64,000 nt of DNA from Alphaproteobacteria bacterium (GTDB lineage Bacteria; Pseudomonadota; Alphaproteobacteria; CAAHEQ01; UBA3637): NCBI GenBank assembly GCA_015062245.1, contig SUVA01000003.1:21372-85371 (forward strand). Reading direction: 5' to 3'. The notes beneath the pieces were generated by a model, which had not been told where the DNA came from, did no database searches, and saw only the letters and a list, made by a program, of their open reading frames with translations. Shown here in pieces: positions 6,399 through 7,097 of this stretch. Numbering within the stretch: the stretch's first letter is position 1; every line of letters begins with the position of its first letter. A program made the translations under genes and the position numbers.

Positions 6399-6858
6399 AA
6401 AACATCCCGTGAAATTATCACTGGTCAGTTTATTTGGAATTGGATTTTTGCCGGCATCTGGTACTTGGGGATCCTTATTTGCCGTTTTAATGGTGCCATT
6501 TTTAATGTTTTGTCCGATTATTATTTGGCCAATGGTTATTTTGTCTTTTGCTTTGGGTGTTTGGGCAATACCCTCTTTAATAAAAAATCAAAAAGAAAAA
6601 GATCCCGGTTTTGTAATAATTGATGAATTGATGGGGCAACTTTTGGTTTTTGCTTTTTTGCCATATGATATGTTGAATCCAATTACATATTTATTTGGAT
6701 TTTTGTTTTTCCGTCTGTTTGATATCTTAAAGCCCTGGCCGGTCAGCTTTTTTGATAAAAAAGTGCATAATGCTTGGGGGATTATGATGGATGATTTTGT
6801 GGCGGGAATTTATGCGACATTGGCGTTGGGGCTGATGGCGTGGTTTAGTTTTTTATAA
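6370..6858 (+). CDS. pgpA: Phosphatidylglycerophosphatase A
   Basis: PgpA family motifs: FGIGFLPASGTWGSLFAV, IIDELMGQLL, FDILKPWPVSF, MDDFVAGIYATL. Confidence 0.8.
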   Translation: MKLIKNPLFKKHPVKLSLVSLFGIGFLPASGTWGSLFAVLMVPFLMFCPIIIWPMVILSFALGVWAIPSLIKNQKEKDPGFVIIDELMGQLLVFAFLPYDMLNPITYLFGFLFFRLFDILKPWPVSFFDKKVHNAWGIMMDDFVAGIYATLALGLMAWFSFL

Positions 6859-7097
6859 TGAAAGGAAATAAAAAAATGACAAATGAACACTTTAAACATG
6901 CTATAGAATTATATGCGCAAGCAAAGGGATACCAATTATCACCGTTTGCCGACAAAATTATCAATCGTTGCTTGACGGCTTGCAACGGTTGCTGCCCTTG
7001 TGACGTTAGCCGTGGTTTTTGTCCCTGTGGTGAACACCAAAAAGAAATTGAAGAAATGGGACACTGCCACTGTAATTTGTTTGTCAAAAAAGTTTAA
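6858..7097 (+). CDS. Ferredoxin-thioredoxin reductase catalytic-subunit-like Cys-rich protein (79 aa)
   Basis: CPC ... CPC ... CHCxLF arrangement (CCPCDVSRGFCPCGEHQKEIEEMGHCHCNLFV) typical of the FTR catalytic chain; start overlaps pgpA stop (translational coupling). Confidence 0.5.
   Translation: MKGNKKMTNEHFKHAIELYAQAKGYQLSPFADKIINRCLTACNGCCPCDVSRGFCPCGEHQKEIEEMGHCHCNLFVKKV

Follow-up and report, generated by a model that had tools for sequence, protein, structure and literature searches.

What kind of protein is encoded by the short, cysteine-rich gene that follows the phosphatidylglycerophosphatase A gene pgpA in a small-genome alphaproteobacterium, and does its position next to pgpA say anything about its function? 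In chloroplasts it is enzymes of the FTR type that, in the textbook view, connect ferredoxin to the redox control of thiols. Of their non-photosynthetic relatives, the FDRs, only a few examples have to our knowledge been characterised, and all of these are larger, multi-domain proteins. The original prediction for this locus read a frame of 79 amino acids as a mini-protein resembling the FTR catalytic chain (FTRc), translationally coupled to pgpA and belonging to a ferredoxin-centred redox economy. The window, i.e. the whole stretch of 64,000 nucleotides analysed here, comes from a genome of 1.12 Mb that is 94% complete, and the related records are all from MAGs of uncultured Alphaproteobacteria from human, ruminant and rabbit guts.

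Start site and conservation of the mini-gene

The frame at 6858-7097 on the forward strand is open over 79 amino acids in the window sequence and contains the three cysteine motifs that had been reported for it, CPC at nt 6993-7001, CPC at 7020-7028 and CHCNLF at 7065-7082. Its first in-frame ATG (6858-6860, +) overlaps the stop codon of pgpA (6370-6858, +; 162 amino acids; PF04608, 133.9 bits), the last A of the pgpA TAA being the first base of this ATG in the sequence TAATG. The predicted overlap therefore exists, but the homologues, the ribosome-binding site and the two closest relatives favour the ATG at 6876 as the start. The 43 database homologues are mostly 72-75 amino acids long with an N-terminus that mostly corresponds to the residue of ATG 6876, an in-frame start at the position of ATG 6858 is absent from most relatives, and the NCBI records give the 73-residue form. 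The Shine-Dalgarno-like sequence GAAAGGA (6860-6866, +) lies 9 nt before ATG 6876, and a similar sequence is present 7-10 nt 5' of the conserved start in about 45 of the 73 related loci examined, the remaining loci mostly having another N-terminal extension (MTEEE...). Translation from the upstream ATG would run into an in-frame TAA in the two closest relatives (L014 and L015), which leaves ATG 6876 as their sole usable start. From these sequence comparisons we suggest that ATG 6858 is probably unused and that the true start is most likely ATG 6876, giving a protein of 73 amino acids plus stop codon (6876-7097, +). With this start and a ribosome-binding site of its own, the mini-gene lies 17 nt from pgpA without any overlap of stop and start, and the proposed translational coupling via the overlapping ATG is not upheld. 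The mini-gene would be transcribed with, or just after, pgpA and translated from its own ribosome-binding site.

Homologues with 70-97% identity occur in 77 of the 80 species genomes of the order and in 53 of the 54 high-quality ones. Nucleotide differences to 12 relatives are distributed over codon positions 1, 2 and 3 as 82, 66 and 336. All 12 nucleotide differences to L014 are in third positions and leave the protein unchanged; the proteins of L014 and L015 are 96-97% identical over the full 79 amino acids, and the 72 codons compared all encode the same amino acids. Where PgpA shows 35-55% and Tgt 75-80% identity, the mini-protein shows 70-94%. The gene is real and under strong purifying selection, and its assignment as an FTRc/FDR-like gene is based on homologue starts, substitution bias, hhalign, AlphaFold2 and Foldseek.

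Beginning 27 nt past the stop codon is a terminator-like element (7124-7157, +), a hairpin (7124-7147) with a 10-bp stem containing 5 GC pairs and followed by a T-run; it is a consensus match only, and terminator-like sites in this region are no commoner than in shuffled sequence. The hairpin overlaps the 3' end of a convergent gene (7094-7993, -) for a Cys-rich protein of 299 amino acids that is kept only in the closest relatives, at 42-71% identity.

Cysteine core and family membership

The cysteine core of the mini-protein (6993-7073, +) reads, in 73-residue numbering, C40-P-C42, x6, C49-P-C51, x12, C64-H65-C66. The six Cys are invariant in 33 aligned sequences and in 25 diverse short-loop relatives; the His of the CHC motif is also invariant. 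In profile alignments the six Cys correspond one-to-one to those of the CPC/CPC/C[HY]C motifs in the FDR-type structures 7PWE and 4TPU and in Synechocystis FTRc (2PUK). In FTR, four of these residues ligate a [4Fe-4S] cluster and two form a redox-active disulfide. By analogy, C40, C49, C51 and C64 are predicted [4Fe-4S] ligands and C42/C66 the predicted redox-active pair beside His65. The spacing had been said to match that of the FTR catalytic chain. This does not hold: the spacing is CPC-x6-CPC-x12-CHC here and x16/x8 in FTRc from Synechocystis and plants, while that of the FDR type is x14/x12.

Taken by itself, a direct search with the Pfam family FeThRed_B (PF02943) would have missed the relationship, the 79-residue form scoring 17.7 bits (E 0.0038) and the 73-residue form 17.9 bits against a gathering cut-off of 22 bits. 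This sub-threshold match spans only profile positions 60-88, the C-terminal CPC-CHC part, and the single sequence gave only sub-threshold matches to Pfam and NCBIfam, with no further domain. The reading as an FTR catalytic chain is nevertheless sustained by its kin, by profile comparison and by a predicted fold that matches FDRs only. Close kin score above the PF02943 cut-off (P0033, 25 bits; P0040, 26.5 bits; P0043, 37.7 bits). A genome scan recovered proteins of 86-96 amino acids and 35-42% identity in archaea, CPR bacteria and Elusimicrobiota, and these score 78-96 bits over the whole PF02943 model. In an hhalign comparison, a profile built from the alphaproteobacterial clade only (A5) aligned with a profile of 88-residue PF02943 members that score 78-96 bits (A6) at 99.4% probability (E 2.9e-21; 74 aligned columns; 46% identity). 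Similarly, a profile that included canonical members matched 7PWE (E 5e-10) and 4TPU (E 1e-8) in the PDB as well as the catalytic chains of Synechocystis and plant FTR (E 0.005-0.01), all six Cys being aligned, and the clade-only profile placed 4TPU and 7PWE on top (E ~0.012) as its sole PDB matches below E=1. Zn-ribbon and other Cys-rich families were also considered as an identity for the protein, and none matched; in particular, no Zn-ribbon family match was seen.

Predicted fold

The AlphaFold2 model has a pLDDT of 95.9 and a pTM of 0.82. A Foldseek search of the PDB returned three chains only, all of them of the FDR type, i.e. chains A and B of 7PWE (TMq 0.79, rmsd 2.2 Å, probability 1.00) and 4TPU (TMq 0.76); probabilities were 0.99-1.00, but the E-values, at 0.01-0.05, are modest for so short a query. 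The same search against viral structures gave nothing meaningful. Compared with its FTRc/FDR relatives, the protein has a loop from the first to the second CPC that is 8-10 residues shorter, and about 8 residues are missing ahead of the first CPC. On homology and predicted fold, we conclude that the mini-protein is a divergent, shortened member of the FTRc/FDR superfamily.

Several residues outside the core are characteristic of the alphaproteobacterial clade. Within the clade, and not in other FTRc-like proteins, His5, His8 and Arg31 never vary and Cys32 hardly does; Cys36 is mostly conserved in the clade. The model places His5/His8 (window positions 6888-6899) where helix 1 begins and Cys32/Cys36 (6969-6983) where helix 2 ends, so that they may be neighbours. 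These residues could make up an additional metal site or serve as a docking surface.

Distribution of the short form

In an even sample of the class, comprising 301 Alphaproteobacteria genomes, the mini-gene is carried by nine, which belong to five families and all have genomes of 1.1-1.7 Mb. Outside the clade, 442 representative proteins were recovered at E<=1e-3 in an exhaustive profile search. Among the 148 best of these, 58 have exactly the pattern CPC-x6-CPC-x12-CxC and 82 have a loop of at most 8 residues; many of the short-loop relatives are 66-80 amino acids long with all six Cys invariant. Examples outside the Alphaproteobacteria are the FTRc-like proteins P0046-P0084 of alignment A3, which are 66-80 amino acids long and have the CPC-x6-CPC-x12-CxC pattern; L107:3983-4207 and L108:3977-4204 belong to the same group. 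From the sequence data the short form is a widespread, as yet unnamed subfamily. L102, a relative from the Alphaproteobacteria that has the long loop, has CPC-x-VSR in common with the clade of the mini-protein, a hint that the loop was shortened by a deletion there. The alphaproteobacterial proteins are labelled 'hypothetical protein' at NCBI, and one JGI record reads 'ferredoxin-thioredoxin reductase catalytic subunit'.

Some of the short-loop relatives are fused to other domains, in the case of P0071 to a dUTPase. Four are encoded on viral contigs, one of which is 253 kb long. In the phage context they are flanked by genes for an HD-domain protein, an RNA ligase and RtcB; neither thioredoxin nor RNR is encoded among these neighbours. 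The window protein itself matched nothing in PHROGs and, by tblastn, nothing in the GenBank phage collection.

Linkage to pgpA

In 66 of 73 alphaproteobacterial loci the mini-gene immediately follows pgpA, also where PgpA is down to 35-50% identity and the downstream genes are not the same, and a second family (f39) has pgpA upstream as well. The pair is separated in L036 and L046 as well as in one sub-lineage (L020, L034, L035, L061 and L063), where the mini-gene stands as a single cistron, divergent from a gene for an RlmH-type SPOUT methyltransferase. No pgpA is found nearby in families f24, f58 and f79, nor in the archaeal and CPR relatives. The adjacency is thus a feature of two related lineages only, in which it has disappeared on several occasions, and this argues against a functional tie to pgpA; the original prediction had called the coupling unexplained. 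Moreover, PgpA has a single Cys and is therefore not a disulfide substrate. We rejected a functional reason for the linkage on these grounds; the simplest reading is that the adjacency reflects inherited operon structure in compact genomes and not functional coupling. Upstream of pgpA in the window is a gene (5430-6398, +) for a membrane-anchored protein of 322 amino acids without a family match, which overlaps the pgpA start by 29 nt; it keeps this place in most of the related loci, with only 20-37% identity.

Redox partners and TrxB

The window encodes a single-chain pyruvate:ferredoxin oxidoreductase (PFOR; 9768-13277, +), which scores 1723.7 bits with TIGR02176, over the cut-off, the match extending over window positions 9780-13268 (G000:C23:31151-34639). 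PFOR is likely the source of reduced ferredoxin. Ferredoxins and thioredoxins had been proposed as a check, and the genome has one 2x[4Fe-4S] ferredoxin of 78 amino acids and one thioredoxin (TIGR01068, 115 bits); it also has a class III RNR (NrdD) with its activase (NrdG2), and a glutaredoxin was not found in it. With PFOR, ferredoxin and thioredoxin in the genome, the donor, a candidate acceptor and an anaerobic lifestyle are all in place. The proposal of a ferredoxin-centred redox economy that is unusual for the class is supported by PFOR, the 78-residue ferredoxin and the class III RNR, PFOR being above its curated cut-off in only 34 of the 301 genomes. These comprise all nine carriers of the mini-gene and 25 of the 292 others; a Fisher test on these counts (p ~1e-9) is descriptive only and not a valid test, the genomes being kin.

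The genome also contains a TrxB (370 bits) with the motifs CAVC, GGGNSA and HRKKELK, which from its sequence looks NADPH-dependent. Given this normal-looking TrxB, thioredoxin reduction in this genome does not depend on the mini-protein, and we rejected the idea that it is the only thioredoxin reductase there. Within the order, TrxB is kept less faithfully than the mini-protein: TrxB is present in 46 of the 54 high-quality genomes and was not found in 8, as compared with 53 of 54 for the mini-protein. All five of the TrxB-less genomes that were examined further keep the mini-protein, and four have a thioredoxin. In G001, G060, G065 and G066, which are 96-100% complete, thioredoxin and the mini-protein are present and no TrxB was found, these absences being MAG-based; the 100% complete G065, which keeps thioredoxin and the mini-protein, has a TrxB remnant with 8 stop codons (G065:C76:309-659). 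Such phyletic counts rest on related, partly incomplete MAGs, and neither the TrxB losses nor the association with PFOR are made up of independent events.

No thioredoxin, glutaredoxin or ferredoxin gene lies beside the mini-gene in the alphaproteobacterial lineage. Among the longer relatives, a glutaredoxin gene (PF00462, 78 bits) overlaps the start of the FTRc-like gene in L087, a thioredoxin gene is directly upstream in L091 and L093 (PF00085, 110 and 106 bits) and a thioredoxin-like gene is two genes upstream in L089.

A separate observation concerns NrdD, which is split. On contig C17 of G000, outside the window (L098:1263-3600, -), an ORF of 710 amino acids (1138 bits with NF006126, covering model positions 3-658 of 684) is followed by an overlapping, separate ORF of 77 amino acids; this second ORF carries the glycyl-radical tail and precedes NrdG2. 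All 15 genomes of the same genus that were searched show the split, which rules out an assembly error; two of these have both pieces in one frame, separated by a single TAA. The split could reflect recoding or a genuine two-chain NrdD.

Discussion

The sequence and structure comparisons place the mini-protein as a new short form within the known FTRc/FDR superfamily. Our literature search found no published description of it. Among the known systems, the glutaredoxin/FDR fusion of Desulfotalea psychrophila (7PWE) is the best match in both structure and sequence and has the pattern CPC...CPC-x12-CYC; it differs in having 196 residues, a loop 1 of x14 and an N-terminal glutaredoxin-like domain, which represents a fused acceptor, whereas the mini-protein is the bare catalytic module. 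The FDR of Methanosarcina acetivorans (4TPU) resembles the mini-protein in its fold, in its three Cys pairs and in the x12 spacing between the second and third of them, but it has 173 residues, a C-terminal rubredoxin domain, a loop 1 of x14 and CYC as the third motif, and the mini-protein, with its x6 loop and CHC, is only 19% identical to it. Like the mini-protein, the M. acetivorans enzyme has no variable subunit and comes from a non-photosynthetic anaerobe. One study (PMC6262447) describes FDRs as Fe-S enzymes related to FTRc and notes that NTR and FDR systems occur side by side in Methanosarcina; citing Prakash 2018, it also mentions that FDR has been reported to reduce a Methanosarcina thioredoxin.

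FTRc of plants and cyanobacteria (Synechocystis, 1DJ7/2PUK) shares the CPC/CPC/CHC-x-LF motifs and the active-site His with the mini-protein and aligns with it over the whole length; it differs in being about 110-117 residues long, in its x16/x8 spacing and in forming an obligate heterodimer with a variable subunit. When the genome of the window, which is 94% complete, was searched for the variable subunit (PF02941), nothing matched at E<=1. Given the wrong spacing and the lack of a variable subunit, the mini-protein is not a plant-type FTR. Likewise, the Pfam and NCBIfam searches found neither a fused rubredoxin nor a fused glutaredoxin domain in the 73-residue, single-domain protein, which is thus neither a Methanosarcina-type FDR nor a glutaredoxin-FDR fusion. 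The closest full-scoring PF02943 members are the stand-alone FTRc-like proteins of 86-96 residues (L087-L093), which share the GHCHCNLF motif, the x12 spacing and the single domain with the mini-protein but have a loop 1 of x14, a first CPC preceded by 8 additional residues, and thioredoxin or glutaredoxin gene neighbours.

Combining these data, we think it probable, if well short of certain, that the mini-protein is a minimal ferredoxin-dependent thioredoxin/disulfide reductase, i.e. a single-domain member of the FTRc/FDR group. The thioredoxin and glutaredoxin neighbours of its relatives, the less faithful retention of TrxB and the literature on FDR lead us to read it as a thioredoxin/disulfide reductase. 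In the scheme that we infer for cluster binding, electron donor, acceptor and oligomeric state, (i) four Cys would hold the [4Fe-4S] cluster and two would form an adjacent redox-active disulfide, by analogy with FTR, (ii) PFOR would reduce the 2x[4Fe-4S] ferredoxin, (iii) the mini-protein, probably a homodimer like FDR, would take two single electrons from ferredoxin via the cluster and thereby have its own disulfide reduced, and (iv) the reduced mini-protein would pass the electrons on to the cell's single thioredoxin or to another thioredoxin-fold or disulfide substrate. Such a route would provide NADPH-independent thiol reduction in a strictly fermentative gut anaerobe with a small genome, and it would run parallel to NTR in its own genome and may replace NTR in some relatives. 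In the shortening, the 8-10 or so residues of the loop after the first CPC, a short segment before it and every accessory part have been lost and the six Cys and the His kept. Given that loop 1 is x6 and not x14-16 and that we know of no characterised FTRc/FDR protein this short, cluster binding in the shortened scaffold is a prediction.

An FTRc-fold Fe-S/disulfide protein could also serve an acceptor other than general thioredoxin, such as the class III RNR system, another thioredoxin-fold protein or a low-molecular-weight disulfide or persulfide. A dedicated acceptor would fit with NrdD and NrdG2 in the genome, with a TrxB that already serves the single thioredoxin where no glutaredoxin was found, and with short-loop relatives of which one is fused to a dUTPase and others are located on viral contigs in regions of nucleic-acid metabolism. 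However, neither nrdD, nrdG nor any other redox gene is found beside the mini-gene in about 80 alphaproteobacterial loci, and the closest canonical relatives neighbour ordinary thioredoxin and glutaredoxin genes; we therefore consider a dedicated acceptor unlikely. The fold itself would be misleading if the protein were a small Cys-rich metal-binding protein, e.g. for Zn, with a structural or regulatory role and a mere resemblance to FTRc, having neither a cluster nor reductase activity. We regard this as very improbable, given that the six catalytic Cys and the CHC His are invariant, the Cys even in very diverse short-loop relatives, that homology to true FTRc extends over the whole length, and that the fold matches were to FDRs only and no Zn-ribbon family was matched; on the other side stand the sub-threshold Pfam score, the drastic shortening of the loop that normally spans the cluster region and the extra lineage-specific invariant residues His5, His8 and Cys32, which could form another metal site.

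To the remaining alternative, that the mini-protein acts together with PgpA, for instance in redox control of phospholipid synthesis, we give scarcely any credence. It would account for the gene pairing, which is retained in 66 of 73 loci and in f39 despite the divergence of PgpA and differing flanks. Against it, all loci with the pairing are kin, the pair is broken in L020, L034, L035, L061, L063, L036 and L046, pgpA is absent from the vicinity of the gene in f24, f58, f79 and the archaeal and CPR relatives, and PgpA offers only one Cys. We favour the reading of the mini-protein as a minimal ferredoxin-dependent thioredoxin/disulfide reductase.

This reading can be extended, tentatively and with the parts taken jointly in a combination that we hold to be doubtful, as follows. 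Proteins of about 70-75 amino acids with the CPC-x6-CPC-x12-CxC pattern would be the smallest self-sufficient ferredoxin-dependent thioredoxin/disulfide reductases and a widespread subfamily, some members of which are phage-borne; the mini-protein would be the primary thiol-reducing enzyme of the order and the sole thioredoxin reductase where TrxB has been lost; and an extra metal site formed by His5, His8 and Cys32, possibly with Cys36, might compensate for the deleted loop.

A 73-residue version of these enzymes would define a minimal catalytic module of Fe-S/disulfide chemistry. The gene belongs to the core set of an uncultured lineage of the gut and rumen and persists where no TrxB was found; such an enzyme would also suggest how anaerobes with small genomes keep their thiols reduced without NADPH. 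Given the GenBank label 'hypothetical protein' and the Pfam miss, a family model for the short-loop group would be useful and would improve the annotation of many metagenomic genomes.
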